A stretch of DNA of 64,000 nucleotides from Patescibacteria group bacterium (GCA_041660005.1 JBAZXG010000001.1:158565-222564); one strand, 5' to 3'. Shown: positions 7,835 through 54,714, numbered from the stretch's first letter. Made by a program: numbers and translations. Notes: generated from the letters alone by a model not told the origin.

Positions 7835-8629
7835 ATGAAACTACAACCACTGAAAAAACTTATTAATCTTACAGGCAAGACCGCGATAGTTACTGGCGGC
7901 GCCATGGGAATTGGTCTCGGCATTGCACGACGTCTTGCTGAAGCGGGAGCGAATGTGGTCATTGCTGACTACAACGAAAAGGCCGGCAAAGCAAGCACCA
8001 AAGAGCTACAAACAAACGGATGGATTGCTGCTTTTATAAAAACCGACGTTAGTCACGAACGAGATGTTCAAGCGGCAGTTAACTTTACTGTTGCCACTTA
8101 TGGACATATCGACATCCTTGTGAACAATGCCGGCATCTACCCGACGATCCCTGTATTAGAAATGAAGCTCGATGATTTTAAGAAAGTAATCGAGGTAAAC
8201 TTGCAAAGCGTTTTTCTGTTCACTAAGGCCGCAGCAAAAATTATGATTAAACAAAGCAACGGTGGAAAAATCATTAATATTACTTCGGTCGACGCACTTC
8301 ACCCATCATCTGTCGGTCTCGCGACCTATGACGCATCAAAACATGGACTCTGGGGTTTTACTAAAAATTCCGCACTTGAGTTTGCGCCGTATAACATCCA
8401 GGTAAACGCTATTGCCCCAGGAGGCATCACCACACCAGGAACAGGAGCCGGCTTGCCGGTAAATCCCAGCATGACAGCGCTCCTTAAAAAATTTAAAGAA
8501 AAAATTCCCATGAAGCGCATGGGTGAACCCGATGATATTGGGAAAGTCGCCTTGTTTTTGGCTACTGATCTTTCGAGCTACATGACCGGGTCGCAGGTGG
8601 TGGTAGACGGCGGTGTTTTGCTCACGTGA
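7835..8629 (+). CDS. SDR family oxidoreductase (FabG-like 3-oxoacyl reductase family)
   Basis: TGGAMGIGLGIARRL Rossmann motif, NNAG, YDASKHGLWGFTK catalytic YxxxK. Confidence 0.85.
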   Translation: MKLQPLKKLINLTGKTAIVTGGAMGIGLGIARRLAEAGANVVIADYNEKAGKASTKELQTNGWIAAFIKTDVSHERDVQAAVNFTVATYGHIDILVNNAGIYPTIPVLEMKLDDFKKVIEVNLQSVFLFTKAAAKIMIKQSNGGKIINITSVDALHPSSVGLATYDASKHGLWGFTKNSALEFAPYNIQVNAIAPGGITTPGTGAGLPVNPSMTALLKKFKEKIPMKRMGEPDDIGKVALFLATDLSSYMTGSQVVVDGGVLLT

Positions 8630-8895
8630 ATTGAAATTGCTATCAACACGAAGTTTGTGTTACCATGAAATTTCTAGTTATCTCATACCCCTGTGGAAAG
8701 TAACAAAGTTACTATCGACGACCTTGCTGTAATGATCAATAAAGGTTTTGAAAAGGTTGAAAAGGACATCGACGAACTTAAAAAAGGACAGGATCGCATT
8801 GAGCTACGCCTTGATAATGTTGCTTATCGATAAAGTCGGGTACAACCTTACTGAAACTTATCAAAGACAGAGGTTTTGCAAAGTGAGGTAGGTTA

Positions 8896-10191
8896 TTAAT
8901 TTTTTTTCACCCGTTCGACCACCGCCACTTTCACTGTGCGCAAAGTAGTTTCTTTAACAATCAGTTGAATATCTTTATGTTCTACAACGTCCCCTATTTT
9001 AGGAAACCGACCAAGACGATCGAGAATAAATCCTGACACGGTTGTAAAGTCCTCATTTTCTGGCAGCTCAGACTGAAGATGCTTGTTAAAATCGATAATG
9101 GAAACGTCGCCAACGACAAGAAGTTTGTCCCCTTCCTGTTTAATCGCCCCACTTACTTCGTCAGTTTCGTCCGTAATGTCTCCAACAATCTCCTCTAAAA
9201 TGTCCTCTAATGTGACCAGCCCCTCGATTTCTCCATGCTCGTCGGCAACCAATGCCATGTGCGCTTTTTTTCTTTGAATTCTTTGCAGCACCTGACCAAT
9301 TTTCATCGTACCTGGAACAAAATAGGGCGGTAACAAAAACTCACGAAGCTGAAGTCCTTGCATCCCCTTTTCAAACTTTGGAAGCAAACGTTTCGTATAA
9401 AGAATACCAATGATGTTGTTCATGGTTCCCTCGTAGATTGGTACTCTTGAGTAACCCGACTCAATGGCTTTATGAACAACATCTCGCGCGGGCTCGTTAA
9501 TATCAAAAGCAACCATGTGCGTACGCGGTATCATAATTTGCCGTACGCTCAAGTCAGAAAAGTCAAAAACGTTTTCTATTATATTATGTTCATGCGATTC
9601 AATGGTACCGGCGCGACGGCTTTCTAAAAGAAGTGCTCTGATTTCCTCTTCTGAAAGTTTAGTCTCAGTGAAGGTTGTTGAGTCGTGAAATAATTTCAAA
9701 AGTAAATTGGAAGAGACGTTCAATGCTTTAATCGGCAACGCATTAATTTTTGATAACCACCAAACAGGATAAGCAGCGAGAAGCGCTAAAGTTTCCGCAT
9801 AACGTAACCCCAAAGACTTCGGCACCAACTCCCCAATGACGATGTTAACGTAGGCAACCACAACAACAACGGTTGTAAAACTAATGGCGTAAGCGTGTTC
9901 AGCAACAAAAGGAATATCGAACCTACTAAGGAAACTAGCCAACTCACGGGCGATACTCGAACCAGCAAAAGCCGAAGCGGCAATGGTAATAACAGAGATG
10001 CCTATTTGAATGGTGGCAAACATGCGCTCTGGTTTTTGATACAATTGTTGAATGATCTGCGCGCGTCGATTGCCTTTCTTAACCAAACCGGCTAGATGGG
10101 TTTTCCGTACGGCAATAAAGGCAATTTCACTCATGGAGAAAAAACCATTGAGCAAAGTCAACAAAAAAACGATAGCAATTTCTGAAATCAT
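8896..10191 (-). CDS. HlyC/CorC family transporter (DUF21/CNNM + CBS pair + CorC_HlyC C-terminal domain)
   Basis: N-terminus MISEIAIVFLLTLLNGFFSMSEIAF typical of DUF21; 431 aa architecture. Confidence 0.85.
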   Translation of the reverse strand: MISEIAIVFLLTLLNGFFSMSEIAFIAVRKTHLAGLVKKGNRRAQIIQQLYQKPERMFATIQIGISVITIAASAFAGSSIARELASFLSRFDIPFVAEHAYAISFTTVVVVVAYVNIVIGELVPKSLGLRYAETLALLAAYPVWWLSKINALPIKALNVSSNLLLKLFHDSTTFTETKLSEEEIRALLLESRRAGTIESHEHNIIENVFDFSDLSVRQIMIPRTHMVAFDINEPARDVVHKAIESGYSRVPIYEGTMNNIIGILYTKRLLPKFEKGMQGLQLREFLLPPYFVPGTMKIGQVLQRIQRKKAHMALVADEHGEIEGLVTLEDILEEIVGDITDETDEVSGAIKQEGDKLLVVGDVSIIDFNKHLQSELPENEDFTTVSGFILDRLGRFPKIGDVVEHKDIQLIVKETTLRTVKVAVVERVKKN

Positions 10192-13339: not shown

Positions 13340-14019
13340 TAGAGGTTAATAACTTAACGCGGACTTACCCAGGCAAAGTACCGACACTGGCGTTGCGAGG
13401 TGTTACGTTCACCATTAACGAAGGAGAATTTGTCGCTATCATGGGAAAAAGTGGTTCTGGAAAATCAACACTGCTGCATCAGCTCGCGCTTCTGGATATA
13501 CCCACAAGTGGATCGCTAACGATTGGCGGCAACGATGTCATGGCTTTAAGCGAACACCAAAAAACTCTTTTTCGACTCATGAACATTGGCTACGTTTTTC
13601 AAGAATATGCGATTTTGACCGAACTGACAACCCTCGAAAACGTTGCTTTGCCGCTGCGCGTTCGTGGAGGGCTGTCACGTAAAGATGCTCATAACGAGGC
13701 CTCGCAACTACTCGATCGTGTAGGACTTAGCAACCGTTTACATCATTACCCGGGCGAACTATCGGGCGGCGAACAGCAACGTGTGGCGATTGCACGGTCA
13801 CTCATTAACAAACCGCGCATACTACTAGCGGACGAACCATGTGCAAATCTCGATACCGCATCTAGCGAAACGGTTCTTCGCTTGTTGCGAGATCTCAATA
13901 AAAACCTTGGTCAGACTATTGTAATGATCAGCCACGAGCCTGAAGATCGCGAATGGGTTGATAGAATTTTATGGCTGAAAGACGGGCTTATTGATCATAT
14001 TGACAAAAAAGCATCGTAA
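13330..14019 (+). CDS. ABC transporter ATP-binding protein (MacB/LolD-like)
   Basis: Walker A GKSGSGKST, signature LSGGEQQRVAIARSL, Walker B ILLADEP; overlaps permease by 10 nt. Confidence 0.9.
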   Translation: MGMIEVNNLTRTYPGKVPTLALRGVTFTINEGEFVAIMGKSGSGKSTLLHQLALLDIPTSGSLTIGGNDVMALSEHQKTLFRLMNIGYVFQEYAILTELTTLENVALPLRVRGGLSRKDAHNEASQLLDRVGLSNRLHHYPGELSGGEQQRVAIARSLINKPRILLADEPCANLDTASSETVLRLLRDLNKNLGQTIVMISHEPEDREWVDRILWLKDGLIDHIDKKAS

Positions 14020-14098
14020 ATTGCTCCACGAAAAAGCATCTGCTTCTCTCAAAGCCACCCATTGCCAAGACCACAAAAATCACCTAGCATGTCGAGAC

Positions 14099-15562
14099 AT
14101 GGCAAACAACGTTATTCTTCGTTTCGACGAAGTTATTTTTAATTACGGCAAAACCAAGCCCATACTGGATGAGGCCAGTTTTTCCGTGCGCAATGGCGCT
14201 AAAGTTGCGCTCATGGGACAAAATGGTGCTGGCAAAACTTCTCTCTTCTCTTTGATTCTTGGAGAACAAAAACCCCAGTCGGGACGAATTTATTTAACGC
14301 CGCAAGACGCCACCGTTGGCATTGCAAAGCAAGTTGTCGCAGAGGAACAAAAAGATCTTACGGTGCGTGATTTTTTTGCTGCAACATTTACTGACGTCCC
14401 TTACAACTTAGACAAGCGCATTGCAGACGTTCTGGATGCTGTAAACTTAAAAACCGACCTCACAAAAAAAGTACGCGAGCATTCCGGCGGTGAGCAAGCA
14501 CGGCTATTGCTCGCCTACGCGCTCATTCAAGACCCCGATATTTTGCTGCTTGATGAACCAACCAATAATCTTGATCAAGACGGGATTGCTCATCTCACCA
14601 TATTTCTTGTCATGTACGAAAAAACAGTTATGGTAATTTCACACGATGCAGACTTCTTAAACGCCTTTACGGACGGTGTCATTTATCTTGACGTGCATAC
14701 ACATAAAACTGAGCAGTATGACGGCAACTACTCCAACGTTGTTGATGAGATAGCCCGCCGGATTGAACGTGAACTCATGCAAAATGCTCAAGCCGAGCAG
14801 CAGATTAAAAAGAAAATGGCGCAGGCAGAGGTGTTCGCACATAAAGGTGGTAAACTCCGTTCTGTTGCCAAGCGCATGCGCGAAAACGCCGAAGACGCCG
14901 CCGAAAACATGGTTGAGACACGCCGTGAAGACAAAACTATTCGTGACTTCACTATTCCGGTTCAAGAATTTCCATTTGATTTTAACGGAGCAATTCTTGA
15001 TATAAACAAGGTTAGCATTGTCAAAGAAGGTAAACTGGTGATGAAAGAAGTTGCCTTGACCCTGCGCCGTCGATCGCACCTTCTGCTTGCTGGCCCGAAC
15101 GGTATCGGCAAAACAACATTACTGAAACAAATCGCCGCTGGCGAAGCGAAGGGTACAAAAATTGGTATGGGTGTACGTGTTGGATACTACGCGCAAGATT
15201 TTTCTATGCTCGACTTCAGTCAAACAGGACTAGCATGTTTAACGAACGCCATGGAAAAACCAGACGAACATATTATTCGCTCCACCGCAGCAGGATTTTT
15301 ACTTGATGGCAAAGTTATTGGTAACGAAATTCGCTACATGTCTGAAGGACAAAAAGGGCTTCTAGCTCTGGCAAGACTCGTCCTGATGCGTCCAGGGCTC
15401 ATTATTTTAGACGAGCCGACAAACCATATAAATTTCCGCCATTTGCCGATTATTGCCAAAGCGCTTGATGGTTATGAAGGCGCCATGGTGCTTGTGAGCC
15501 ACATTCCTGACTTTGTCGCACAAATTCGCATTGATCACACGATTGATCTTGGTCGACTGTAA
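14099..15562 (+). CDS. ABC-F family ATPase (two ABC domains, no TM)
   Basis: GQNGAGKTS / HSGGEQARLLLAYAL / LLLDEPTNNLD and GPNGIGKTT / MSEGQKGLLALARLV / ILDEPTNHIN; start at MANNVILRFDEV. Confidence 0.85.
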   Translation: MANNVILRFDEVIFNYGKTKPILDEASFSVRNGAKVALMGQNGAGKTSLFSLILGEQKPQSGRIYLTPQDATVGIAKQVVAEEQKDLTVRDFFAATFTDVPYNLDKRIADVLDAVNLKTDLTKKVREHSGGEQARLLLAYALIQDPDILLLDEPTNNLDQDGIAHLTIFLVMYEKTVMVISHDADFLNAFTDGVIYLDVHTHKTEQYDGNYSNVVDEIARRIERELMQNAQAEQQIKKKMAQAEVFAHKGGKLRSVAKRMRENAEDAAENMVETRREDKTIRDFTIPVQEFPFDFNGAILDINKVSIVKEGKLVMKEVALTLRRRSHLLLAGPNGIGKTTLLKQIAAGEAKGTKIGMGVRVGYYAQDFSMLDFSQTGLACLTNAMEKPDEHIIRSTAAGFLLDGKVIGNEIRYMSEGQKGLLALARLVLMRPGLIILDEPTNHINFRHLPIIAKALDGYEGAMVLVSHIPDFVAQIRIDHTIDLGRL

Positions 15563-15953
15563 AAGGTATTGACCCCATAGAAAGCCCTAGACTCTTAAGT
15601 TCGCCCACGGGCGAGTTGAGAAAGACGGCTCGGCAGAGCTCCGCAAGCAGCAATTTACACCATTTTGTGCGTACGCACAAAATGGTGTAAAAATAATAAA
15701 ATACAAAATCACTAAAAGTAATCAGCGACCACGCCCCAAGGGGACGGGATGTGTAATGGTGATTCCACTTCGCCGAGTCAAACTCACCTCCTTCGCTTAA
15801 GCTTCGGACGGTCAAGGACCTCCTTCGCTCCCACTTCGTATCAAACTACGGCGGGACACAGCAATGCTACGGACGGTCAAGGACCTCCTTTGCTTAAGCT
15901 TCGGACGGTCAAGGAGCTACGCGGGATATTTTTGCTCACCCCCAACAATTGCA
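15563..15953. repeat. Composite repeat-rich intergenic region (palindrome + B-module + three copies of acggacggtcaagga(c/g)c units)
   Basis: Direct reading: ctcctt(c/t)gcttaagcttcggacggtcaagga twice, acggacggtcaagga three times; shares motifs with 20088-20193 and 60930-61013. Confidence 0.6.
15656..15689. repeat. 34-bp perfect palindrome TACACCATTTTGTGCGTACGCACAAAATGGTGTA (copy 1 of 3)
   Basis: Sequence equals its reverse complement; flanked by T-run and A-run. Confidence 0.85.
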
Positions 15954-17039
15954 CTAACGTTTTTTAAGCGTATCGCTTGATATCACGCGGTCGTAACGGC
16001 GACCGTTGAAAATTATTGTGGGAATTTTAATGGTACGAATTTGTTGCTCAACGACCGCACGGTGTTCTTTAATGATTTGAACCACTTTATCCGAATGTGC
16101 CATTTCAGTAACGCGCGCAATGGTCGCTTCATCATAGCCAAAAGTCGGCAACATTTCTTGCAGCTTATGTTCGGCTTCAGTTTCGCTGTAGAGCGTATTA
16201 AACTTTACCTGCATCTGAACTCCGTCACCGTCTGCACCCAGCAATATTGTCTCAAGTAGTTTCCAGTCTGCGGGCGTCGTCCCATCAAGCTTCGAGGGTG
16301 GAACGAGTTTTACTGCTTCGAGATATTGCGCAATGAGATATGAGTTGGCAAATTTGTAACCACTCTTTTGCTGCGGATCAGGAATAGGATAAGCAATATA
16401 GGTTAGGTTGTGCGTATGCTCAAAGTCAGCTGCTTTAATATTATTTAATAACGAAGCGCAATAATGGCATCCCGGATCGAGAATTTCTAGCGCCGTTATT
16501 TTTTGATTATCAAAAGGGGCATAGTACGTGCTCTCCGCCGTCGTGAAGTCAGCAGCATTCCAGCTCCGCAGCCGATTCGGCACAAGACTCGTAGTGTTCG
16601 CTACGTTCACAAACGGCCGAGCCGCCCACGATGCCAGTTGTCCTTGCTGAAACGATTCAAACAAATCAAGATTCTGTGAAGGAACGGCACAGGCTTCTCC
16701 TGCTAACGAGCAAGACTCTGCAGCCTGCGGATTGCAGGTATCATAAACAAAGAGGTTAAGCCCCGAAACCGCAACATATATAAGACTCCAAATGGATAAA
16801 CCAACAAAGACGAGGGCGAGCCAATTTGACCACCTTAAGAAAAAACGTGCGAGGAGTGGTGAACGTCGAACCAGTTTACCGGCAATGATACCTTTAATTT
16901 CTTCGTCAAAATGAATATCGCACGGCCGAAAAGTAAGGCGGCGGCCAACACAATACCAAGCTTTTTTAGCAAGCCCCCGATAATAGGCAGAGAATATACC
17001 CAAAATGAGAAAGACGATAAAAGCGGCGATGCAAAACAT
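15954..17039 (-). CDS. Membrane-anchored thiol:disulfide oxidoreductase, DsbA-like thioredoxin-fold domain (CHYC) fused to N-terminal 2-TM Cys-containing domain
   Basis: LDPGCHYCASLL CxxC motif in C-terminal half; two TM helices and paired Cys N-terminally. Confidence 0.6.
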   Translation of the reverse strand: MFCIAAFIVFLILGIFSAYYRGLAKKAWYCVGRRLTFRPCDIHFDEEIKGIIAGKLVRRSPLLARFFLRWSNWLALVFVGLSIWSLIYVAVSGLNLFVYDTCNPQAAESCSLAGEACAVPSQNLDLFESFQQGQLASWAARPFVNVANTTSLVPNRLRSWNAADFTTAESTYYAPFDNQKITALEILDPGCHYCASLLNNIKAADFEHTHNLTYIAYPIPDPQQKSGYKFANSYLIAQYLEAVKLVPPSKLDGTTPADWKLLETILLGADGDGVQMQVKFNTLYSETEAEHKLQEMLPTFGYDEATIARVTEMAHSDKVVQIIKEHRAVVEQQIRTIKIPTIIFNGRRYDRVISSDTLKKR

Positions 17040-17042
17040 ATT

Positions 17043-18254
17043 CTAAAATGCTTGAAGGGTTGATGAAATAATTTTTACAACACGAGAAACATCGGCATGA
17101 GTATTTTGAAGTCCAAGAGACAAACGTAGAAGTGGAGGCAATTTTAGTACTTTTTGCAAATAATAATGACAGCAGAAATATCCGCTCCGCGCCATAACCC
17201 CTTGTTCTGATAGCATGAGCGAGAGGCGATGCGCGTCAGCGTTTGGAAAAGAAAAAGCTACCACAGGACTCGCACTGCTATTCACAAGATTAATCGCCGG
17301 AATTGTTTTTAGCTCATCCAAAAAAGTTTGAGACAGCTCGCGCACATGCACATCAATTGCTTTATTACTCGGACGATATTTCGATAGCCACTCAAGAGCA
17401 GCAGAAAAACCAATGATGCCAGCCCAATTTTGCAGCCCCGGCTCAAGCCGAGTATGAAGTTCACCCTGTTCGTCAATGAGTGAATACGCAAGCTCGGAAA
17501 CGTCGCTCACCATCCCGCCGCCAATAAAACTGATATCGAGATTCTCGAGTAAACTTTTTTTGAAAACAATAAAGCCAAGACTCGGCCCGTACATTTTATG
17601 CGAAGAACCGAAGAGACAATCAAAATCAACGTTGGCAAGGAGTGATCGGTGATACACCATAGACTGCGCTGCGTCGAGGAAAAGAAGCCCACCCGCGGCG
17701 TGCGTATCGCGAGCAAGGTCCGCAACGTTCACACACTGTCGCCCATCAACGTTTGATGTCGTGCTAACAAGAACGACGCTCCGTTCAAGTTGATTTTTAT
17801 TGTATGAAAGTGCGCCATCAGCAGCTCTCTCAAGCACGAGCCGAGACAACCCATACTTTTTTGCCACCGTAATCGTCGGCAGAAAAACAGAGTTATGCTC
17901 AATTTGGGAAGTAACAATATTCTTGAACCGGTCAACCTTGAGCTGCTGCAATACCAGGTTGATACCGTACGTTGTATTTAAAGTAAAAGCGACAGCATAT
18001 TCATTCGCCGATTTTCCAAGAGCGTCCAATAACCGACGTCGGGCAATGCTAACCGCATCGTCAACCCGTCTCCCCCACTCATATTTTACGCGACCACCAC
18101 AGGCGTTGTAATTCTTGTAATAATCAATCTCGGCGTCAATAACTTCCTGCGGCCGCAGTGTTTGGCACGCCGAATCAAAATATAATTGTGTCTCGTCAAG
18201 ATATGCAAAACTCGATGTTTCTGTATGTTGTCGAGAACGAGTGCCGAAAAGCAT
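17043..18254 (-). CDS. Class V aminotransferase-fold PLP enzyme (cysteine desulfurase-like)
   Basis: YFDSACQT (cf. YLDSAATT) and SSHKMYGP PLP-lysine motif. Confidence 0.7.
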   Translation of the reverse strand: MLFGTRSRQHTETSSFAYLDETQLYFDSACQTLRPQEVIDAEIDYYKNYNACGGRVKYEWGRRVDDAVSIARRRLLDALGKSANEYAVAFTLNTTYGINLVLQQLKVDRFKNIVTSQIEHNSVFLPTITVAKKYGLSRLVLERAADGALSYNKNQLERSVVLVSTTSNVDGRQCVNVADLARDTHAAGGLLFLDAAQSMVYHRSLLANVDFDCLFGSSHKMYGPSLGFIVFKKSLLENLDISFIGGGMVSDVSELAYSLIDEQGELHTRLEPGLQNWAGIIGFSAALEWLSKYRPSNKAIDVHVRELSQTFLDELKTIPAINLVNSSASPVVAFSFPNADAHRLSLMLSEQGVMARSGYFCCHYYLQKVLKLPPLLRLSLGLQNTHADVSRVVKIISSTLQAF

Positions 18255-18471
18255 TTGCGAAAATCAATGATATCTTACATTGAGCATATCAAGAATTGAC
18301 CATTATTTCAAGCATATTTGATTACATAATACTGTAGTCTTTTGTTGTTTTTTGTTGTCGCAATAGTGTGCAATGTTTGCATAAATTTATACCTTTTAGA
18401 AAGACGACGTCCGGGCGGCTGCAGTATTGCAACCGTCCGGACGCATTTCGACTGTGGTGGGGTTTTCGGCC

Positions 18472-18720
18472 TCAACGGCAGGGATGGATACCGTGCTGCC
18501 GGAGCATTCTGCGCATCCACCCGATGGTGGATGGCTTCTGTTTTCGACGGGCAAGAGAATCTCGCCTACTTCCGCCCATCGTAGCGTTGATGTTGTGCTT
18601 CTGGCACTGCTCGACAAGCTTCTCGCGCGCCGTCGCAAGCTCGCGCTCTCTTTTCGTCGGGACGCCTACCCTCGGCTGGTAGAATACTCTTCCTCTTGAT
18701 CCAAAAATTGTCGAACTCAT
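18472..18720 (-). CDS. Hypothetical small basic protein in GC-rich islet
   Basis: AGGAGGA SD 7 nt before ATG; Arg/Lys-rich 82 aa; GC-rich; followed by inverted repeat 18406-18447. Confidence 0.3.
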   Translation of the reverse strand: MSSTIFGSRGRVFYQPRVGVPTKRERELATAREKLVEQCQKHNINATMGGSRRDSLARRKQKPSTIGWMRRMLRQHGIHPCR

Positions 18721-18882
18721 CTGGTCCTCCTGCGACCACAAACGTTACGTACCCCAAAATCGACGACGTGACTTTAACATAGACCCTTTCAACCTACAAC
18801 TTAAACTATGCTGGTTCTTATGGTACACTAATTAAATAGATACTTTGTTATAGTCTAGAGAATATTACCTTTTTATAAATTT

Positions 18883-19413
18883 ATGCCAAATCACCTTTCA
18901 TTATTACATTCCCTCTTTGGTGACACTGAAGAGCCAAAAAGAAGGAAGATACTACGCTCCATCAAAGCTAAAGCTGACTCCAAAAGAACAGTATCAGAAA
19001 AAACCGCCGATTGGATGACGGCTCATTTTGGGAGTATAACTTTTTTACTACTGAACTTTTTTTTGTTTATCGTTTGGTTAGTTATTAATTCTGAACGAAC
19101 AAAAGGACTTCCCAACTTTGACCCCTTCCCATTTAACCTACTAACAACAATCGTTTCACTAGAAGCAATTATTCTTGCTATTTTTGTTCTGATATCGCAA
19201 AACCGAAGTATGAAAGTGGACGACCTAAGAGAAGAGGTTCATTTACAGATAAATCTCATTGCTGAAAAAGAAGTAACAAAAGTAATGAAAATGATGGTTC
19301 TATTGTTAAAAAAACATGATATAGATGTATCGGAAGATCCTGAACTAAAAAAGCTTCTTAAGCCCATCAGTGAGGAAGAGATAGAGCGGATATTAGAAAA
19401 AGAAATTTTGTAA
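18883..19413 (+). CDS. DUF1003 family membrane protein
   Basis: DWMTAHFGSITFLLLNFFLFIVWLVINS...FDPFPFNLLTTIVSLEAIILAIFVLISQNR pattern. Confidence 0.55.
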   Translation: MPNHLSLLHSLFGDTEEPKRRKILRSIKAKADSKRTVSEKTADWMTAHFGSITFLLLNFFLFIVWLVINSERTKGLPNFDPFPFNLLTTIVSLEAIILAIFVLISQNRSMKVDDLREEVHLQINLIAEKEVTKVMKMMVLLLKKHDIDVSEDPELKKLLKPISEEEIERILEKEIL

Positions 19414-19517
19414 ACCATCTGTATTGCGTAAGGCGTACTGCGCAAGGATGATATTACACTTGCTATTTATCGCTATTTAGCATAGTATCAAGCAACTCAC
19501 CACTCATATAAAAATCT

Positions 19518-19931
19518 ATGAACTCACCATTTCAACGTAATACTCGAGGAAAACGCAGCGACGGGGACAGATTTAGTAGCGATAAGCCCTGGAAAAAGAG
19601 CTTTGGCGACCGCGACGGCGCACGTCCGGCACTACACCCTGCTGTCTGCAGTAAGTGCGGCCAAGACTGTGTTGTGCCTTTTAAACCAAACGGCAAAAAA
19701 CCAATTTTCTGCAGCAATTGTTTCAAAAAAGAAGAGGGCGCAGACGACAATCGATTTAGTCGACCGAGTACCGGGCGACCATATCGTGATGAAGATCGCG
19801 GCGGTAGAGAAGATTCTTTAGGGTGGCAACTGAAAACGATTAATAGCAAGCTCGACACTATTTTGAACCTGCTAGAATCTGACACCTACGAAGAACCTAA
19901 GCTTGATAAACCAAAATTCAGGAAACGTTAA
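19518..19931 (+). CDS. Hypothetical zinc-ribbon protein (CxxC-x17-CxxC) with Arg/Gly-rich flanks
   Basis: CSKCGQDC...CSNCFKKEEG; basic RGG-like low complexity. Confidence 0.5.
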   Translation: MNSPFQRNTRGKRSDGDRFSSDKPWKKSFGDRDGARPALHPAVCSKCGQDCVVPFKPNGKKPIFCSNCFKKEEGADDNRFSRPSTGRPYRDEDRGGREDSLGWQLKTINSKLDTILNLLESDTYEEPKLDKPKFRKR

Positions 19932-20015
19932 AGCGACTGAAGACTCCTGAAACGACCCCCGAGTTTTCGGTTTGTCGGCGTTTCTGAAAATTGCTTAACT
20001 TTCGCGTTACCGTTT

Positions 20016-20049
20016 TACACCATTTTGTGCGTGCGCACAAAATGGTGTA
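20016..20049. repeat. 34-bp palindrome copy 2 (centre gtgcgc variant)
   Basis: tacaccattttgtgcgtgcgcacaaaatggtgta. Confidence 0.85.
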
Positions 20050-20087
20050 AAAGTTAAAAGTCAATATAATCACGACAAGCTGACGGA

Positions 20088-20193
20088 GTGTAATGGTAAT
20101 CCCACTTCGCCGAGTCAAACTCGGCTACGAGGGATATTTTTGTCTTCTATATTGTAACCTCGCGGCAAGCCGACGAGGTATTGGGGACAAAAA
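20088..20193. repeat. Mosaic repeat: B-module (gtgtaatggtaatcccacttcgccgagtcaaactc) + C-module double hairpin (tttttgtc..cctcg-cggcaagccga-cgagg..gacaaaaa)
   Basis: B-module also at 15751-15785; C-module near-identical at 33521-33577. Confidence 0.75.
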
Positions 20194-20290
20194 TAAAAAA
20201 CTCGCGGAGCACCGCGAGAGTTAGCTGGCTGTCGAACGTACTGGATATACAGTCCAGAGTTCGACAGCCCGCCGCTGCGAAGGAAGCTTC

Positions 20291-20593
20291 CTACCCTGCC
20301 AGGAGTCCCTCCTTGAATTCCTCGAACGGGATAGCTTCCCCTTCGGGTTCTGCGTAATCGGGGTCAACGTTGTGCCGAGCACGGAAGACCGCAGTTGCAC
20401 CCGGAACCCATCCGGCTCGCTCTTCGACGGCGGTTTTCAGGGCCGCCCGAGAATGCACGTAGCATTCCCAAAGAGCAGCCTGTTTCAGAAACCGTCGACC
20501 ACCCATCCTGGGGTTGTCCCTGCTCAGGGCAACAACCCCGTCTCCAGTGACCGGTCCGGAGGTCACTATGTATCCTCGGCCGCTTTCATCCAC
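20291..20593 (-). CDS. Hypothetical protein in GC-rich islet (100 aa)
   Basis: Natural-looking translation on minus strand; downstream 10-bp stem with 22-nt loop (20228-20268) then tight terminator 20200-20218 + U-run. Confidence 0.35.
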   Translation of the reverse strand: MDESGRGYIVTSGPVTGDGVVALSRDNPRMGGRRFLKQAALWECYVHSRAALKTAVEERAGWVPGATAVFRARHNVDPDYAEPEGEAIPFEEFKEGLLAG

Positions 20594-21004
20594 TCCACTT
20601 ACCTCGCTTGGTTATTCTGTCCTGCTGGTCAAACCAGACGCGAACAGTGGGCACAATGGTATCCTTATAAAAGGAAATAATCAAGGAACTCCTTTTGATT
20701 TATTATTACTTTGGAAATAACACATTTGAACCTTGCCCAGTCAGACTGGGCGGAGGTTGTCTATTATATTTTTCTTCACAAACTGTTAGTACCATAGCCT
20801 AGACTATGGTACTAGATGAAAAATGGGACTTCTAGGTAAAAAATATAATATACTATTCGATATTCCAACATTCTTGAGAATGTGAGAATGACAGAAATAA
20901 GTCACTCCACAGATTTCGCTTGCAGTACCAACCCCTACAAAATCAGCAAGTCTTAGTGACTTTTATACAAAAAGTATTATACTAGCATTAAGTTACTATA
21001 GTTT

Positions 21005-21397
21005 ATGCACGACCAATATACCCCTGACGACCCTAAGGTTACAAAAAGCAGTAAGGAAGTGCGACCGCCAGCAAGTATGGATGAGGGTCAGGAAATAGGC
21101 AAAAGTGAAGTGCCAACGAAAGTTCTTAACATGGCGGAAATAATGCTAGGTAAGTTGGGTGGGCAGACTGACGGTCGTAATGTTACTATTACTCGCTGCA
21201 AAGTTAGCATTGATCAAACAAACAACAGTTGTTTTTATTCGATCAGGGGAGCAATTCACACCGAACAATTAAATACACGAACTGACAGTTCCGAACCTCA
21301 GTTTGATCGACCAACCGAAGCTGAAGTCATGATTACAACATATCCTCATGAAGTTATTGAGACGAAAGTTGTCAGTACGAAGATAGTGCACCAATAA
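21005..21397 (+). CDS. Hypothetical protein (130 aa)
   Basis: ORF ending right before strong terminator. Confidence 0.45.
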   Translation: MHDQYTPDDPKVTKSSKEVRPPASMDEGQEIGKSEVPTKVLNMAEIMLGKLGGQTDGRNVTITRCKVSIDQTNNSCFYSIRGAIHTEQLNTRTDSSEPQFDRPTEAEVMITTYPHEVIETKVVSTKIVHQ

Positions 21398-21430
21398 AAA
21401 ATACCTCGGCTCGCGCCGAGGTATTTTTCA
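21396..21430. terminator. Bidirectional intrinsic terminator shared by convergent genes
   Basis: aaaatacctcggc-tcgc-gccgaggtatttt perfect 13-bp stem with A-run and T-run. Confidence 0.8.
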
Positions 21431-21438
21431 AGAATTTA

Positions 21439-22062
21439 CTAATCTACCCGTTTGACTTTTTGCGCCGCATCAAAAACTAAATTCGCCGTTTTCCAATTGA
21501 GGTTCTTAATATAATCATCAATATAGGTCTTTCGATCTGATCCGTAATCAATAAAGTAAGCATGCTCATAGACGTCTAACGTCAGCACAGGAATAGCACC
21601 CCAAACGCCACCCTGATTGTGCGCGTCGCCAGTGTAGACTTTGAGCTCGGCTTCATGCGTGTCCCAGGCAAGAACTGCCCAACCGCGTGCTGCCATACCG
21701 CAGGCTTTAAAGTAGCTAAGAAAATTTTCAAGTGAACCAAACTTTTCTTCAAGTGCAGTAATGAGCGAACCGTCAGGAACACCATCACCACCGAGCACAT
21801 TGAAGTAATACTCATGAAGGTACACGCCATTTGTGGCGAACGTCTCGCCGTCTTTCAAGGCGCGCAGTTCAGAAAATGTCTGGTTGGCACCGGTTAAATC
21901 TTTTTTACCCTGCTCAAACGCTTCTAGACTTTCGGCGATCTCGTTCTTCTTCTTAACGTAACCCATGTAGAGCACATCATGGTGCATCGCCATGGTCTTG
22001 TCCGAAATACCTTTCAGTGTCGCTTTAAAAGGAAGCGGCTTACCTGTATATTGTTTTGCCAT
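21439..22062 (-). CDS. sodA: Fe/Mn superoxide dismutase
   Basis: DVYEHAYFIDYGSDRKTYIDDY and WDTHEAEL motifs; 207 aa. Confidence 0.9.
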   Translation of the reverse strand: MAKQYTGKPLPFKATLKGISDKTMAMHHDVLYMGYVKKKNEIAESLEAFEQGKKDLTGANQTFSELRALKDGETFATNGVYLHEYYFNVLGGDGVPDGSLITALEEKFGSLENFLSYFKACGMAARGWAVLAWDTHEAELKVYTGDAHNQGGVWGAIPVLTLDVYEHAYFIDYGSDRKTYIDDYIKNLNWKTANLVFDAAQKVKRVD

Positions 22063-22163
22063 AAAATATAAATAATTTAATAACTTCTATTGAACATCCA
22101 GTATACGCCCGCTTAAAAAAGTAGGCAAAACTACCCACGGCTCTTTTGCCGACAAAACAATTT

Positions 22164-23363
22164 CTAAATTCGGACAAATTTAATTATCTCGGGTAATGCT
22201 TTGAGTACAAGGTCAATATCTTCTTTGGTAGTACTCTCGCCAAACGTAAAACGAACACTGCCGGCAATAGACGCTTTGTCGAGTCCTATGGCTTCAAGTA
22301 CGTGCGACGGCTCCCCTTTTGCACCAGCGCACGCTGCTCCTGTGCCAGCGTAAATTCCCTGCTCGCTCAAATACACAATGAGTCCTTCAGCGTCAACTCC
22401 GGGAAGACACACGTTGACGTTGTTCGGCAAACGCAGTGTTGCATGACCGTTTACCGTACTGCCAGGAATGACAGCAAGAATACCATTAGTAAAGTAATCA
22501 CGAAGAGACGTAAGACAAAGAATCTTTGCCTCGTGGTCTCTGCGCGCCAGCGTTAACGCCGCGGCTAACCCCACAATTGCAGGAACATTTTCAGTGCCAG
22601 CCACGAGACCGTGCTGTTGCCCGCCGCCATAAATAAGCGGCGCAAGTGTAATGCCACGTCGCACGTAAAGTGCCCCAACCCCCTTAGGGCCATAAAGCTT
22701 AGCGGCGTTCAAAGTCAATAAATCAACCCCTAGCTTTTCAACTGCCAGTGGTAAAAACGCGGCGGCCTGACAGGCATCGGTATGAAAATAAACAGGATGG
22801 AGACCTTGAGTAGTACGTTCTCGATTTACACGTTTCATCAATTTTCCGATTTCAACAATTGGCTCAATAACGCCAATTTCATTGTTGGCGTACATGACAG
22901 AGACAAGAACTGTTTCTGGAACAATCGCGGCAACAATAGCAGCAGGATCAATCCGGCCTTCACGGTCAACAGGTACGCTCGTAACACGCGCATCTTTGTC
23001 TTGAACAAGCGCACGCAACGGTTCTCTCACTGCATCGTGCTCAATAGTCGAAGTAACAACGTGGGGCACTGGCTGATGACTTGCGCGAACAGTGCCAAGA
23101 ACGGCCAGGTTGTCACTCGCTGTCCCGCTAGGAGTAAAGATGATTTCGTCTGAATGCGCGCCAAGTATTTCGGCAACAGCGCGCGCTGCTGCATCAATAA
23201 CTACACGACTCTGCTTTCCTAAACGGTGAAGGCTCGATGGGTTGCCATAATACTCGTCGTAATAAGGTGCCATGACCATGGCCACCTCAGGAGCGACCGG
23301 GGTCGCTGCCGCGTAATCAAGATAGATATTCGGCTCTTTCGCCTTTTTCTTAAAAAATTGCAT
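22164..23363 (-). CDS. Cysteine desulfurase, NifS/IscS type (class V aminotransferase)
   Basis: YLDYAAATPV, LNAAKLYGPKGVGALYVRRG PLP-Lys region, C-terminal active-site Cys loop GTGAACAG. Confidence 0.85.
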   Translation of the reverse strand: MQFFKKKAKEPNIYLDYAAATPVAPEVAMVMAPYYDEYYGNPSSLHRLGKQSRVVIDAAARAVAEILGAHSDEIIFTPSGTASDNLAVLGTVRASHQPVPHVVTSTIEHDAVREPLRALVQDKDARVTSVPVDREGRIDPAAIVAAIVPETVLVSVMYANNEIGVIEPIVEIGKLMKRVNRERTTQGLHPVYFHTDACQAAAFLPLAVEKLGVDLLTLNAAKLYGPKGVGALYVRRGITLAPLIYGGGQQHGLVAGTENVPAIVGLAAALTLARRDHEAKILCLTSLRDYFTNGILAVIPGSTVNGHATLRLPNNVNVCLPGVDAEGLIVYLSEQGIYAGTGAACAGAKGEPSHVLEAIGLDKASIAGSVRFTFGESTTKEDIDLVLKALPEIIKFVRI

Positions 23364-23503
23364 ATACGTTAATTGTACCCATGAACTATAAAGTAAGCTA
23401 TGGATTGTTTTACGTCAAAGACATTACATAAAAATCGGATTGACTTTTCATAATGTCTGAGATATTCTATCCAGTCCTAACCAAGGACAGGAGGAATCGA
23501 CCA

Positions 23504-23719
23504 ATGGCCGACGAAAACGCCCTTCTTTTCGCAGAGGAAGGGAGAAAGAGGATCCAACGCGCCATCACAGCACAAGCGGGTCGCGAGACTCACCTCGCCT
23601 GTGAGCGAGGTTTCGTCGATACTGAGACAGGTATCGGCGTAAGCGATACTGACATTCTCGAGGTACTCGAACGCGAGTGGCTTGATCTCCAGGTGATCCT
23701 GTCCACTCCTGCCGAGTAG
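23504..23719 (+). CDS. Hypothetical small protein (71 aa) in GC-rich cassette, C-terminus ..STPAE
   Basis: AGGACAGGAGGA SD 7 nt upstream of ATG; GC ~55%. Confidence 0.4.
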   Translation: MADENALLFAEEGRKRIQRAITAQAGRETHLACERGFVDTETGIGVSDTDILEVLEREWLDLQVILSTPAE

Positions 23720-23732
23720 CCGGAGAACCTCC

Positions 23733-23808
23733 GAACGCGCGCGACGAGAAGGGCGGGAAGATTGGCAACGAGCTGATCGACCCGCCCTCGTCTTTTCTAG
23801 CCACTTTT
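23733..23808 (+). repeat. 3' cassette module copy 1: ccgaacgcgcgcgacgagaagggcggg-[23-nt loop]-cccgccctcgtcttttctagc (terminator-like inverted repeat)
   Basis: ~70 nt identical to 24367-24445. Confidence 0.75.
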
Positions 23809-23938
23809 TAATCTTTTATTACTTTTTGAAGCCAAAAAATCTTCTCTAAAAAACCTTCATTTTGAGTACATCACTTAGAATTGACGTTTAAATGCTAAAG
23901 GACTAAGGTACTTCGGCACTACTTCATAGTGGAGTGTG

Positions 23939-24358
23939 ATGAGACAAAGCCGAAACTTTCGGCCAGCACCGGAGGAAACAGTGAAGAAACTCATACGCGA
24001 GATCACGTTCTCGACGAGAGGGGTGAGCGTTTCTCTCGCCAACGGAGGAGTGTTCGGCATTAACTGCCAAACACTCGACATGACGGTCGATGAGGGCGAG
24101 GGCGGTCTAAATAGCGCCGCACTGCCCCACGACAGCGTCATGCGGTTCGAGGTCAGAGATGAGGAGGAGTGCCACTGCGCCGCAGTCGAGGGTCCGACTT
24201 TGGGAGCCCACCTGTACGTGGTGTACAGGGACACGACAGGTGGTGAGCAGGGAATGGACATGGGCCTTTTCCCTTTCCGTGATACGCTTCTGCTCCTCTG
24301 TGAAGTGTTCAACAAGCTCAAGCCCGTCACGACTGTCCCCTCCACTCCGGCCGAGTAA
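23939..24358 (+). CDS. Hypothetical protein (140 aa) in GC-rich cassette, C-terminus ..STPAE
   Basis: TTGACG -35-like at 23881, GGAG before ATG; GC ~63%. Confidence 0.4.
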   Translation: MRQSRNFRPAPEETVKKLIREITFSTRGVSVSLANGGVFGINCQTLDMTVDEGEGGLNSAALPHDSVMRFEVRDEEECHCAAVEGPTLGAHLYVVYRDTTGGEQGMDMGLFPFRDTLLLLCEVFNKLKPVTTVPSTPAE

Positions 24359-24366
24359 CCTGAGGC

Positions 24367-24445
24367 CCGAACGCGCGCGACGAGAAGGGCGGGAAGATTG
24401 GCAACGAGCTGATCGACCCGCCCTCGTCTTTTCTAGCTACTTTTT
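24367..24445 (+). repeat. 3' cassette module copy 2 (identical to 23733-23808)
   Basis: Direct comparison of both copies. Confidence 0.75.
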
Positions 24446-24469
24446 AGTGCTTTCGTATTTTAGAATTTT

Positions 24470-24503
24470 TACACAATTTTGTGCGTACGCACAAAATTGT
24501 GTA
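24470..24503. repeat. 34-bp palindrome copy 3 (tacacaattttgtgcgtacgcacaaaattgtgta)
   Basis: Perfect palindrome; 2 substitutions vs copy 1, compensated symmetrically. Confidence 0.85.
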
Positions 24504-24512
24504 ATTTGATAC

Positions 24513-24549
24513 TTGCGTCACTCGGAAATGCAAATTATGATTTGCATTT
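24513..24549 (+). promoter_or_regulatory. Candidate suf operon promoter (-35 TTGCGT, 17 nt, -10 TATGAT) overlapped by operator-like inverted repeat aaatgcaaat-tatg-atttgcattt
   Basis: Motifs read directly ~95 nt upstream of sufB start. Confidence 0.45.
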
Positions 24550-24640
24550 CACTCGAATATTTGGCAATAACAATTTAATACTAACAACCGCAAAACACTT
24601 TGCCGGACAGGGCGTATATTGCTACACTTGGACACTGCCT

Positions 24641-26089
24641 ATGCCGCAAAATGAACAAGAAATTATCGCAAAAACAACGAGCAAATCCTACCCATTCGGC
24701 TTTCGCTCAGTGATTGCAACCGAACAGGCAGAACGAGGTTTGAACGAAGCAGTTATTCGGTTTATTGCGCAAAAAAGAGATGAACCGGTATGGCTCCTCG
24801 ACTGGCGACTCGCTGCCTACCGCCATTGGCTCACCATGAACGAACCAACCTGGGCAAACGTTGCCTATCCGCAAATCGATTATCAAGCAATGCACTACTA
24901 CGCGGCACCAAAACAGCGACAGGCACTTAATAGCTTGTCCGAAGTTGATCCTGCAATTCGCGAAACCTTTGAAAAACTTGGTATACCGGTTTTTGAACAG
25001 GAACGCTTAGCTGGTATAGCAATTGATGCAGTGATTGACAGCGTTTCCGTAGCGACGAGCGTTCACGAAACACTGCAAAATCTCGGCATTGTTTTTTGTT
25101 CTCTCGGTGAAGCCGTACAAAAATACCCCGACCTCGTGCGTCAGTATCTCGGCAGCGTAGTACCTGCGAATGATAACTTTTTTGCAGCGCTCAATGCCGC
25201 TGTTATGAGCGACGGCACTTTTGTTTACATTCCCACTGGCGTACACTGCCCTATCGAACTCTCTACTTACTTTCGCATGAATGCCGCCAACACCGGCCAA
25301 TTTGAACGAACGCTTATCATTGCCGAAGCCGATAGCTACGTCAGTTACCTTGAGGGATGCACCGCCCCGCGCCGAGAAGAAAACCAATTGCACGCTGCAG
25401 TTGTGGAAATTGTTGCTCTAGAAAACGCCGAGGTGCGCTACGCCACGGTACAAAACTGGTACCCGGGGGACGAACAGGGCAAAGGTGGCGTCTATAATTT
25501 TGTGACAAAACGCGGGCACTGCTTAGGGAAACGATCAAAAATTTCTTGGACACAAGTAGAGACGGGTGCCGCCATCACTTGGAAATACCCCAGCGTTATT
25601 CTGGAAGGAGACGAATCAGAGGGGGCTTTCTATTCTGTTGCGGTCACTACTGCCCGACAGCAAGCAGACACCGGCACCAAAATGATTCATCTTGGAAAAA
25701 ATACCCGCAGTACTGTCATTGCCAAAAGTATTGCCGCAGGAGAAAGTCGAAACACCTACCGCGGCCTCGTTAAGGTCGGATCAAAAGGCGAAGGCGCTAA
25801 GAACTACTCGCAATGTGATTCATTACTCATTGGCGGAAAATCATCTGCGCACACCTTTCCAACTTTGGAAAGCCGGCAGACAAAAGCGAACGTGCAGCAC
25901 GAAGCCACCACTTCAAAAATTAGCGATGAGCAGCTCTTCTACCTTAATCAGCGCGGTATTCGCACTGAAGATGCTGTTGGTTTAATTGTCAACGGATACT
26001 GCAGAGAAGTGATGAGCCGACTGCCAATGGAATTTGCCGTTGAAGCAAAAAAACTGCTCTCATTAACGCTTGTGGGTGCTGTCGGTTAA
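24641..26089 (+). CDS. sufB: Fe-S cluster assembly protein SufB
   Basis: N-terminus aligns with SufB ([28 protein letters not shown]); length ~482 aa; followed by sufC. Confidence 0.9.
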
Positions 26090-54704: not shown

Positions 54705-54714
54705 GCGTTTTTGT

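Follow-up and report, generated by a model that had tools for sequence, protein, structure and literature searches.

A repeated palindrome in a Patescibacteria genome as a putative operator of a truncated PaaX-like regulator

Three copies of a long palindrome lie between genes in a Patescibacteria (CPR) MAG. We searched the window, the whole 64,000-nt stretch analysed here, with the 34-mer core of the element and recovered copies 1, 2 and 3 with 0, 1 and 2 mismatches respectively, spaced 4360 and 4454 bp apart (Table 1). None appeared in 100 dinucleotide-preserving shuffles used as the control, and the copies in the window are beyond chance expectation. The window and a 6 kb extension (~70 kb) hold three copies, all inside 9 kb; at least one more from the same genome lies on another contig (L045), and contig L016 possibly carries one too.

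Table 1. Palindrome copies and neighbouring features, in window coordinates
Feature	Position	Strand	Description
Palindrome copy 1	15654..15691; core 15656-15689	.	Perfect 38-bp dyad with T/A extension (TTTACACC...GGTGTAAA)
Palindrome copy 2	20013..20052; core 20016-20049	.	40-bp dyad, 19-bp arms
Palindrome copy 3	24469..24504; core 24470-24503	.	ACACA/TGTGT variant, perfect 36-bp dyad
Oriented flanking module, ~76 nt, common to copies 1 and 3	15642..15717	+	CGCAAG-N3-CAA, palindrome, A-rich tail AAAATAATAAAATACAAAATCACTAAAAG
Flanking module around copy 3, inverted	24442..24517	-	15642..15717 is 88% complementary to 24442-24517 (alignment)
Hairpin-2 module, downstream of copy 3	24505..24585	+	GGAAATGCAAAT-tatg-ATTTGCATTTC plus GGCAATAA (alignment, fold)
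Module D11 (GTGTAATGGTGATTCCACTTCGCCGAGTCAAACTC)	15751..15785	+	62 nt right of copy 1
Module D11, second copy	20088..20122	+	39 nt right of copy 2; then hairpin and GGGATATTTTTG
D1 terminator module (GACGAG..GGGCGGG...CCCGCCCTCGTC then TTTTCT)	24367..24461	+	Repeat search; adjoins copy 3
Likely sufB core promoter (TTGCCG-N17-TACACT) and start codon 24641	24600..24643	+	Motif comparison with L037

The element is almost entirely symmetric. An earlier note on this DNA described a perfect 34-bp palindrome occurring three times; its positions and the threefold repeat stand, but copy 2 is imperfect, its centre reading GCGTGCGC instead of GCGTACGC (TG for TA, an A>G change and the sole asymmetric position). 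Copy 3 carries two substitutions, C>A and G>T, and that note was right to call them symmetric. Adjoining T and A runs lengthen the dyad to 38 bp in copy 1, 40 bp in copy 2 and 36 bp in copy 3. The stem is AT-rich apart from a central GTGCG. Seven copies, drawn from two or more species, share 32 invariant columns out of 42; both variable stem positions are altered jointly on the two arms, one-sided stem changes number zero, and the loop is self-complementary in six copies. The proposed selection for symmetry has just two compensated pairs behind it among the seven copies, and templated correction inside the palindrome is another possible source of such pairs.

All copies examined, in the window and on a related contig (L027), are extragenic. 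Copy 1 lies 93 nt past the stop of an ABC-F gene and 264 nt past that of the convergent ORF 15954-17039, and copy 2 lies 84 nt past a zinc-finger gene and 241 nt past the convergent ORF 20291-20593; promoter annotation is absent near both. Copy 3, 111 nt past ORF 23936-24358, has the D1 terminator module on one side and the sufB promoter on the other. The sufB ATG follows it after 137 nt, so all three copies are intergenic but this one belongs to a 5' region as much as to a 3' region. The SufB of the window is MFA5954113.1 (P0001, 482 aa, 100% identical). The motif TATTGCTACACT is kept in an Uhrbacteria relative (L037), there 8-12 nt before the ATG, and this conservation places copy 3 ~150 bp upstream of the expected sufB transcription start.

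Short repeated modules surround the palindromes. D1 has a second copy at 23731-23825, and the supposed GC-rich islet at 24367-24445 is one of these two terminator repeats, making the adjacency of palindromes to such islets incidental. The sole tRNA of the window (61014-61090) is near no copy, so the association with composition islets and tRNAs proposed earlier finds no support. Hairpin-2, a perfect 11-bp stem, is homologous to L045 53-125, the sequence that follows a fourth palindrome copy upstream of a subtilase gene.

The palindrome forms a very stable hairpin that is not an intrinsic terminator. Copy 1 folds as RNA into a 17-bp stem with a GUAC loop (-24.8 kcal/mol, z -7.2), and the copies fold on either strand into a 16-18 bp stem and tetraloop (-21 to -26 kcal/mol, z ~ -7), with the A>G change of copy 2 falling in the 4-nt loop of the folded strand. 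We rejected an intrinsic (rho-independent) terminator because the element runs T-tract, stem, A-tract and the U-tract is missing, a polarity the reverse of the window's real bidirectional terminators (A-tract, GC stem, T-tract; 205-228 and 21397-21428). The earlier observation that neither strand carries a U-run is correct, A-rich or mixed sequence following the hairpin both ways, and the dismissal of a simple terminator holds; a terminator scan of the window did not call the palindrome. Like bidirectional intrinsic terminators it places a stable hairpin between convergent genes and reads alike on both strands, but it differs from them in its 5' T-tract and 3' A-tract, its AT-rich stem and a sequence that is identical across loci and species.

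The same palindrome flanks a PaaX-like gene on the sister CPR contig L027. There the 34-38 bp palindrome occurs three times within 1 kb (8304-8337, 9091-9124 and 9314-9347), on both sides of a gene for a 218-aa PaaX-like protein (8424-9080, minus strand); L027 9088-9125 and 9311-9348 are 100% identical to window copy 3 over 38 bp. One L027 copy ends 10 nt before the ATG of this gene. The sequence there, TTGTGC-N17-TAAAAT with the ATG 6 nt further on and the -10-like TAAAAT at the palindrome edge, looks like a leaderless promoter lying within the palindrome site. Contig L045 shares its sequencing run with contigs that match the window at 100% identity. Its first letters fall within the palindrome (TGTGCGTACGCACAAAATGGTGTAAAAA), and a subtilase ATG follows 235 nt downstream. 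This fourth copy corresponds in relative position to L027 8304-8337, with surrounding flanks that are unalignable. The gene order epimerase, GtrA, subtilase, PaaX-like can be read from L027 and L045. The palindrome is absent from the syntenic locus of the nearest Uhrbacteria relative, L037, whose intergenic regions are much shorter than those of the window. Genes shared with L037, among them the zinc-finger gene, SOD and NifS, keep the same order and orientation, insertions aside.

The PaaX-like protein has one close homologue, which comes from the window's own MAG. The L027 protein (P0121) matches Pfam PaaX_M (5.6e-17) and combines winged-helix and Cas2-like domains. Among 5.8 billion proteins its only close homologue is P0122, at 75% identity; the rest reach at most 39%, and no homologue above 39% was found in any other organism. 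P0122 is MFA5954732.1 (PF20803, precomputed) and belongs to the same accession series as the window SufB, which places the two in one MAG submission. The P0122 gene lies on another contig of this MAG, and its number is three away from that of the epimerase P0144 (MFA5954729.1), consistent with the gene order above and with a place beside the subtilase gene. The AlphaFold model of P0122 (pLDDT 74.8) has E. coli PaaX as its top Foldseek match (PDB 8a39, E 2.5e-5, 202 columns), followed by the PaaX-like 3l09, Rv0674, Cas2 proteins and winged-helix proteins. The protein lacks the C-terminal effector domain of PaaX (PaaX_M alone matched) and is therefore not a canonical PaaX. It carries a hydrophobic N-terminal helix, and its Cas2-like domain retains the invariant FDIP aspartate.

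Other PaaX_M genes are also accompanied by palindromes. Two more distant genes of this kind have palindromes of their own, 38-44 bp long. In L047 palindromes lie on both sides of the gene: one of 38 bp stops 9 nt short of the ATG, and 37 nt past the stop codon there is a related one of 44 bp. The PaaX_M gene of L046 has a 40-bp palindrome 70 nt upstream, and that of L041 a 64-bp imperfect palindrome ending 9 nt before the ATG. Palindromes of this size in ~112 kb of control DNA were three canonical terminators only. If the operator assignment below is right, it suggests a rule by which each truncated PaaX-like protein of CPR bacteria has a lineage-specific ~40-bp palindrome abutting its start codon, and such a rule could serve operator prediction across many uncultured genomes.

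We favour the palindrome as the putative operator of MFA5954732.1, a lineage-specific truncated PaaX-family regulator, and rate the chances of this assignment as about even. The earlier note named as its first candidate a binding site for a dimeric protein, and the PaaX-like protein of the same MAG now offers a candidate partner. E. coli PaaX binds TGATTC(N27)GAATCA, a 39-bp span, and represses itself at Px (PMC9493321). Six of the seven palindrome copies contain TTTACA-N26-TGTAAA, a 38-bp span (in window copy 3 one side reads TGTAAT), and the variable stem positions lie only just inside these hexamers. The palindrome thus shares with the PaaX box of Escherichia coli and Pseudomonas a pair of inverted hexamers about three helical turns apart spanning 38-39 bp; the candidate protein shares the winged-helix plus Cas2-like fold of PaaX (Foldseek 8a39; PF20803), and the L027 site, like the PaaX box, overlaps the regulator's own promoter, a putative one in L027. 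The two systems differ in half-site sequence, in the 26-bp "spacer", here itself a perfect and invariant palindrome, and in the candidate's 218-aa length, hydrophobic N-terminal helix and lack of the phenylacetyl-CoA-sensing C-terminal domain. The paa genes are absent here, and palindromes lie on both sides of the regulator gene and also in 3' regions.

Under such an assignment, a dimer would put one winged helix on each outer half-site, TTTACA and TGTAAA, which we take as the probable contacts by analogy with PaaX; with 26 bp between them, the half-site centres would be separated by about three helical turns, as in E. coli. The inner 22 bp are invariant, with A/T tracts ~10 bp apart, and may contribute shape or further contacts. 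Where it precedes the regulator's gene, the site would overlap a near-leaderless promoter, and the regulator would consequently repress itself. The three window copies would be additional sites of the same PaaX-like protein, one of them preceding the sufBCDSU promoter by ~150 bp. In the convergent 3' regions, protein on the other two sites could serve as a roadblock or an insulator, or might control unannotated short transcripts. What we observed is the sequence with its conservation, its company with the gene, and the fold and geometry; binding, repression and the targets of the three window copies are inferred from there.

Several features fit an operator poorly. A perfect palindrome of 34-40 bp is more symmetric and internally conserved than a half-site-spacer-half-site arrangement needs, and paired-arm changes fit hairpin pairing or templated correction better than half-sites that drift independently. 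In the window, two copies have convergent genes around them and no annotated promoter, the third stands ~150 bp upstream of the conserved sufB promoter, and no theme is common to the flanking genes of the window (Fe-S assembly) and L027 (subtilase, glycosylation). The missing effector domain and the N-terminal helix also count against a PaaX-type regulator, and the two genomes that hold both protein and palindrome are relatives, so their co-occurrence amounts to one evolutionary observation. We consider it rather unlikely that the element is instead a REP-like repeat, possibly REPtron-like, whose hairpin is recognised by the winged-helix/Cas2-like protein that spreads or maintains extragenic copies, the window copies being dispersed offspring in a BIME-like mosaic of short modules. 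RAYT genes are flanked by REPs in REPtrons, much as palindromes lie on both sides of the gene in L027 and L047. Like the REP/BIME elements of gamma-proteobacteria, the palindrome is extragenic, 30-40 bp long, often between convergent genes (two window copies), mixed with other short motifs, and present as two copies with a single protein gene between. Compensated stem changes with a single asymmetric change in the loop, the mosaic or recombined neighbours (D1, D11, D4, hairpin-2 and the inverted 76-nt flanks), absence from the more compact L037, assemblies L008 and L045 that both begin within the element, and the retained FDIP aspartate point the same way. The REP-like element proposed earlier fits the extragenic position, but GTAG is absent from either palindrome end, and the three copies in ~70 kb, all within 9 kb, are few and clustered where REPs are densely dispersed in tens to hundreds of copies per genome. 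The flanked gene encodes a PaaX-like protein, not a Y1 (HUH) transposase, and a scan of ORFs from the window and L027 gave no Y1_Tnp match. Over its whole length the protein folds like the repressor PaaX, and we know of no case in which Cas2-like or PaaX_M domains mobilise DNA. The position beside the regulator gene is conserved between species and not variable, and neither a target-site duplication nor an empty site was seen at the copies. A broader version, in which CPR winged-helix/Cas2-like (PaaX_M) proteins and their private ~40-bp palindromes form self-contained REPtron-like units (palindrome, gene, palindrome), strikes us as distinctly doubtful. If true, extruded hairpins would be the substrate of the Cas2-like domain, which would thereby seed additional copies elsewhere in the genome, a new palindrome-propagating or domesticated mobile system built on the Cas2 fold and not on an HUH transposase.

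Two further readings take the element as a recombination site or as an RNA structure. A site-specific recombinase site bounding two ~4.4 kb segments is highly improbable. Its 34-bp length, read directly from the sequence, would suit the 13-8-13 layout of loxP/FRT (or 16-2-16, as in hix-type invertase sites), the three copies are spaced at 4360 and 4454 bp, the flanks of copy 3 are inverted relative to copy 1, and copy 2 differs in its central dinucleotide. Neither the window nor L027, however, encodes a recombinase, integrase or transposase. Gene order and orientation match L037 save insertions, and the synteny of the zinc-finger gene, SOD and NifS means that the inter-copy segments are not clean insertions; the recombination or integration landmark suggested earlier is unsupported. 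A MITE was likewise rejected, the element being one continuous palindrome with no internal segment and with flanks that lack a duplicated target. An RNA-level UTR hairpin, stabilising 3' ends or offering RNase III a place to process the transcripts on either side, seems improbable to a marked degree. Being palindromic it would work on both strands, its stem and tetraloop are very stable on either, its stem changes are compensated and the lone unpaired change falls in the loop. It is also the first strong hairpin past the ABC-F and zinc-finger genes, whose stop-to-palindrome stretches fold no better than shuffles. The missing U-tract and a polarity the reverse of the terminators at 205-228 and 21397-21428 argue against it, and structure alone cannot account for near-identical sequence across sites and species with unalignable flanks or for the self-complementary loop in six of seven copies. 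The L027 and L047 palindromes, moreover, end 9-10 nt before a start codon, the position of a promoter and not of a 3' end.

Patescibacteria/CPR bacteria cannot grow alone and encode few regulators, and to our knowledge almost nothing is known of their transcriptional control. If the operator assignment is right, MFA5954732.1 and the 38-bp palindrome would form a testable protein-site pair, and their sites would give a first regulon sketch that takes in the suf operon for Fe-S assembly as well as a surface cluster of subtilase and glycosylation genes. A practical point concerns the contigs that begin inside the element: short-read assemblies are broken by such palindromes.

We class the palindrome as a transcription-factor operator and leave a modest chance for a more unusual identity. 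Its assignment to a truncated PaaX-like regulator has, in our view, about an even chance; it draws on a sequence shared between species, on where the site lies at the regulator gene, and on co-occurrence, fold and geometry. A site for a dimeric DNA-binding protein was among the candidates of the earlier note and is the reading we favour, with the PaaX-like protein MFA5954732.1 as putative partner. Such a pair would be a testable regulator and site in a poorly understood, uncultured lineage, and might yield a rule by which further operators of the family could be predicted.

A mismatch-tolerant search of the window returned all three copies of the 34-mer described before, with zero, one and two mismatches in order, and 100 dinucleotide-preserving shuffles gave no match. 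Copy 2 is not perfect as claimed, because a central A>G change (GCGTGCGC) makes its centre asymmetric; in the RNA fold this substitution lies within the hairpin loop. The two symmetric substitutions reported for copy 3 are indeed a mirror-image pair, C>A and G>T. Extension of the dyad into flanking T and A runs to about 38–40 bp holds for copies 1 and 2 (38 and 40 bp) but not for copy 3 (36 bp). Across seven aligned copies, 32 of 42 columns are invariant. Of the 18 stem pairs, 14 are constant; two carry changes in both partners, and one-sided changes do not occur. Variable stem positions lie just inside the outer hexamers TTTACA/TGTAAA and nowhere else. Both strands fold into a 16–18 bp stem with a GUAC/GUGC tetraloop (−21 to −26 kcal/mol, z about −7), and the only other perfect hairpins in the 64-kb window with stems of at least 9 bp are ordinary terminators and two small modules. 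T/A tracts recur within the palindrome at intervals of about 10 bp, as read from the sequence.

Coordinates of the palindromes, repeated modules and associated genes
Feature	Sequence	Position	Strand	Surroundings or detail
Palindrome copy 1	window	15656-15689		ABC-F gene (13991-15562), convergent with 15954-18254
Membrane thiol-oxidoreductase-like ORF and class-V aminotransferase	window	15954-18254	minus	
Palindrome copy 2	window	20016-20049		zinc-finger gene (19518-19931) and convergent ORF (20291-20593)
Palindrome copy 3	window	24470-24503		ORF 23936-24358 and D1 terminator module on one side; sufB ATG (24641) 137 nt downstream
Palindrome copies	L027	8304-8337, 9091-9124, 9314-9347		flank the 218-aa gene
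218-aa PaaX-like gene	L027	8424-9080	minus	second copy ends 10 nt before ATG
38-bp and 44-bp palindromes	L047			38-bp one ends 9 nt before PaaX_M gene ATG; related 44-bp one 37 nt after stop
40-bp palindrome	L046			70 nt upstream of PaaX_M gene
64-bp imperfect palindrome	L041			ends 9 nt before PaaX_M gene ATG; plus a perfect 24-mer
10-bp arms, 16-bp spacer	L043			near PaaX_M gene
D1 (95 nt)	window	23731-23825, 24367-24461		follow ORFs 23453-23719 and 23936-24358
D4 (59 nt)	window	20135-20193, 33518-33576		second copy inside 3' end of MGMT-like ORF (33483-33893)
~32-nt tandem units	window	15786-15918, 60947-60982		right of copy 1; immediately downstream of tRNA-Val (61014-61090, minus)
Bidirectional terminators (examples)	window	205-228, 21397-21428		second lies between convergent genes
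42-bp perfect palindrome	L001	2112-2155		72-nt gap between Rrf2-family regulator gene and NifS/NifU pair
AT-rich core copies	L031	2141-2160, 2193-2212		52 bp apart
AT-rich core copy	L032	5496-5515		

A sister CPR contig (L027) ties the palindrome to the gene of a PaaX-like protein. Upstream of its 218-aa gene stands TTGTGC-N17-TAAAAT, then 6 nt, then the ATG, which resembles a leaderless promoter lying within the palindrome site and would suit autorepression by a protein binding there. The gene product matches Pfam PaaX_M, which is the central, Cas2-like domain of PaaX. A search of 5.8 billion proteins gave it a single close homologue, P0122 (MFA5954732.1), at 75% identity, with all others at or below 39%. 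By their accessions, P0122 and the window's SufB (MFA5954113.1) come from one MAG submission; that SufB is 100% identical to a protein (P0001) on a 244,965 bp contig of a Patescibacteria MAG. The epimerase of L027 has its best match (66% identity) in P0144 (MFA5954729.1), on the same 103,214-bp contig as P0122 and three accession numbers from it, a spacing consistent with the gene order of L027: epimerase, GtrA, subtilase, PaaX-like. Contig L045 stems from a sequencing run that also yielded contigs identical to the window. It carries the subtilase, GtrA and epimerase genes and starts within the palindrome (TGTGCGTACGCACAAAATGGTGTAAAAA), 235 nt before the subtilase ATG. A fourth copy therefore lies upstream of the subtilase gene in the window's own genome. 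Its relative position is that of the first L027 copy, which lies between the PaaX-like and subtilase genes, and the intergenic sequence around the two is unalignable between the species.

The protein has the layout and predicted fold of a PaaX relative. An alignment of 22 family members shows, after a variable N-terminal part that includes a hydrophobic helix, a winged-helix segment and a Cas2-like domain with an invariant WD..W..IFDIP ... Q.S ... P. The best match of the AlphaFold model (pLDDT 74.8) is E. coli PaaX (PDB 8a39, E 2.5e-5 over 202 columns), followed by PaaX-like 3l09, Rv0674, Cas2 proteins and winged-helix proteins. PaaX is a repressor that binds TGATTC(N27)GAATCA and represses its own promoter (reviewed in PMC9493321). 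TTTACA-N26-TGTAAA spans 38 bp against the unusual 39 bp of the PaaX site, but its 'spacer' is fully palindromic and invariant. The element would work most like a PaaX box, yet it departs from a canonical PaaX system, as paa genes are missing and the PaaX-like protein lacks the effector domain.

Long palindromes of their own also accompany PaaX_M genes on four other CPR contigs (L041, L043, L046 and L047). Control DNA amounting to about 112 kb, drawn from L037, L039, L040 and the window with the element left out, held three palindromes of comparable size, all three canonical terminators.

One scan each with the 22-bp core ATTTTGTGCG-NN-CGCACAAAAT returned 7 loci from public genomes and 25 from metagenomes, most with palindromic extensions of unrelated arms in unrelated contexts. 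The full window-type sequence is present at five loci. Two of them, L015 and L018, are the window itself; L016 has one more copy, which closely follows a terminator and precedes a membrane-protein gene by 122 nt; L027 is a 37%-GC contig with three copies within 1 kb; and L029 is 99.96% identical to part of L027. We rejected a core conserved across phyla, since outside these five loci the outer arms show no relation and the settings vary, from a true terminator (L026) to a site within a gene (L033) and paired operator-like sites (L031). By our own estimate, the other core loci are best explained as draws from a large background of hairpins and operators. In the related high-GC contigs L031 and L032 an AT-rich core, TTTTGTGCG-NN-CGCACAAAA, is kept while the centre varies, a pattern resembling an operator for an unrelated regulator. 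The palindrome of L001, from a MAG labelled Gammaproteobacteria, shares the 22-bp core with different arms, which may reflect chance or a separate kind of intercistronic hairpin. L008 and L045, independent short-read contigs of run SRR18595301, both start at position 1 inside the palindrome, which thus interrupts assemblies; several further metagenome contigs stop no more than about 100 nt from theirs.

The placement of the window copies does not sit easily with an operator. Copies 1 and 2 occupy convergent 3' regions, and copy 3 lies far upstream of the sufB promoter, all awkward for classical repression. The true sufB promoter probably lies some 100 nt downstream of copy 3, because TATTGCTACACT, 8–12 nt before the sufB ATG (12 nt in the window, 24600-24643; L037 9962-10003), is kept in the closest relative, a genome of Candidatus Uhrbacteria whose SufB is 79% identical; this conservation also points to a near-leaderless sufB mRNA that lacks a Shine-Dalgarno sequence. 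As operators, the copies could serve as roadblocks or as distal or looping sites. They may govern unannotated short transcripts: copies 1 and 2 have on their right a -10-like hexamer, the D11 module and a hairpin plus U-run, and the folding z-scores of these candidate small RNA genes are weak. They may also be non-functional extra sites.

Compensated substitutions and perfect symmetry leave some room for readings built on a hairpin. A REP-like or REPtron-like element is nonetheless unlikely, as the palindrome lacks GTAG and no RAYT was seen among the scanned ORFs of the window and L027, and a function as an RNA hairpin is less probable still. The element lacks the defining features of both intrinsic terminators and MITEs. 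True bidirectional terminators in the window run A-tract, GC-rich stem, T-tract; the palindrome has the opposite polarity, carries no U-tract and was absent from the matches of a terminator scan of the window, so the earlier view that it is no simple terminator holds and an intrinsic terminator is ruled out. A recombinase site is highly improbable, because no recombinase is encoded nearby and the shared gene order is unchanged, which also tells against the recombination or integration landmark proposed before. The syntenic Uhrbacteria locus (L037: ABC-F, zinc-finger gene, SOD, NifS-like, small gene, sufBCDSU) contains no palindrome even allowing three mismatches; it has canonical terminators at 3' ends and much shorter intergenic regions than the window.

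Several other identities were rejected. Nearby sufB, three cysteine desulfurases and SOD, together with the Rrf2–palindrome–NifS arrangement of L001, prompted the idea of an Fe-S or oxidative-stress regulator site (IscR/Rrf2, SufR, PerR); there is no Rrf2 homologue in the window, the sites are not at promoters of Fe-S or SOD genes, the palindrome is absent from L037, and the L027 context has no Fe-S genes. A DNA-uptake-type signal fails because the lone half-site is not enriched (10 found, 8.9 expected). For a TIGR-Tas array or target we examined the neighbouring tandem units and a 361-aa ORF, which carries a CHYC motif, resembles membrane thiol-oxidoreductases and has no Nop/Tas similarity. 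Although the window encodes NrdR (34253-34756), the spacing is wrong for an NrdR box and there is no nrd context. A parS or origin cluster was set aside for the lack of dnaA and parAB genes and of a GC-skew switch at 15–25 kb, and a phage origin because viral contigs yielded no match to the palindrome or the PaaX-like family. Rfam gave no family match, only sub-threshold chance hits.

Intergenic DNA in the window is a mosaic of repeated modules: D1, D4, D11, the ~32-nt tandem units and hairpin-2. About 76 nt of flank is common to copies 1 and 3 in inverted orientation. D1 (copies 93% identical) contains a long GC-rich terminator hairpin and seems to start within coding 3' ends, because the two unrelated small ORFs before it both end ...STPAE*. 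D4 (copies 97% identical) has a T-tract, stem, A-tract design, and the MGMT-like ORF holding its second copy is 24 aa longer than the 112-aa L037 orthologue. The tandem units (ACCTCCTTCGCTTAAGCTTCGGACGGTCAAGG), related to the 3' part of D11, enlarge the region right of copy 1. That copy marks the left edge of about 3.9 kb of DNA that the window has in excess of L037 between the ABC-F and zinc-finger genes (window 15563-19517, L037 5288-5576), encoding a VKOR/DsbA-like membrane protein, a second class-V aminotransferase and a DUF1003 gene.

Farther off, a gene at 6678-7196 near an ECF sigma factor gene (2482-3063) encodes a 172-aa protein with two tandem GerE/LuxR-type HTH domains and contains an internal DNA repeat (6891-6952 and 7104-7165, 77% identical). 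A giant 4217-aa ORF (39856-52509, minus strand), with TSP3-repeat and Ig-like/T4SS-pilin-like proteins beside it (38104-39813, 52515-54779), probably forms a surface or adhesion cluster.
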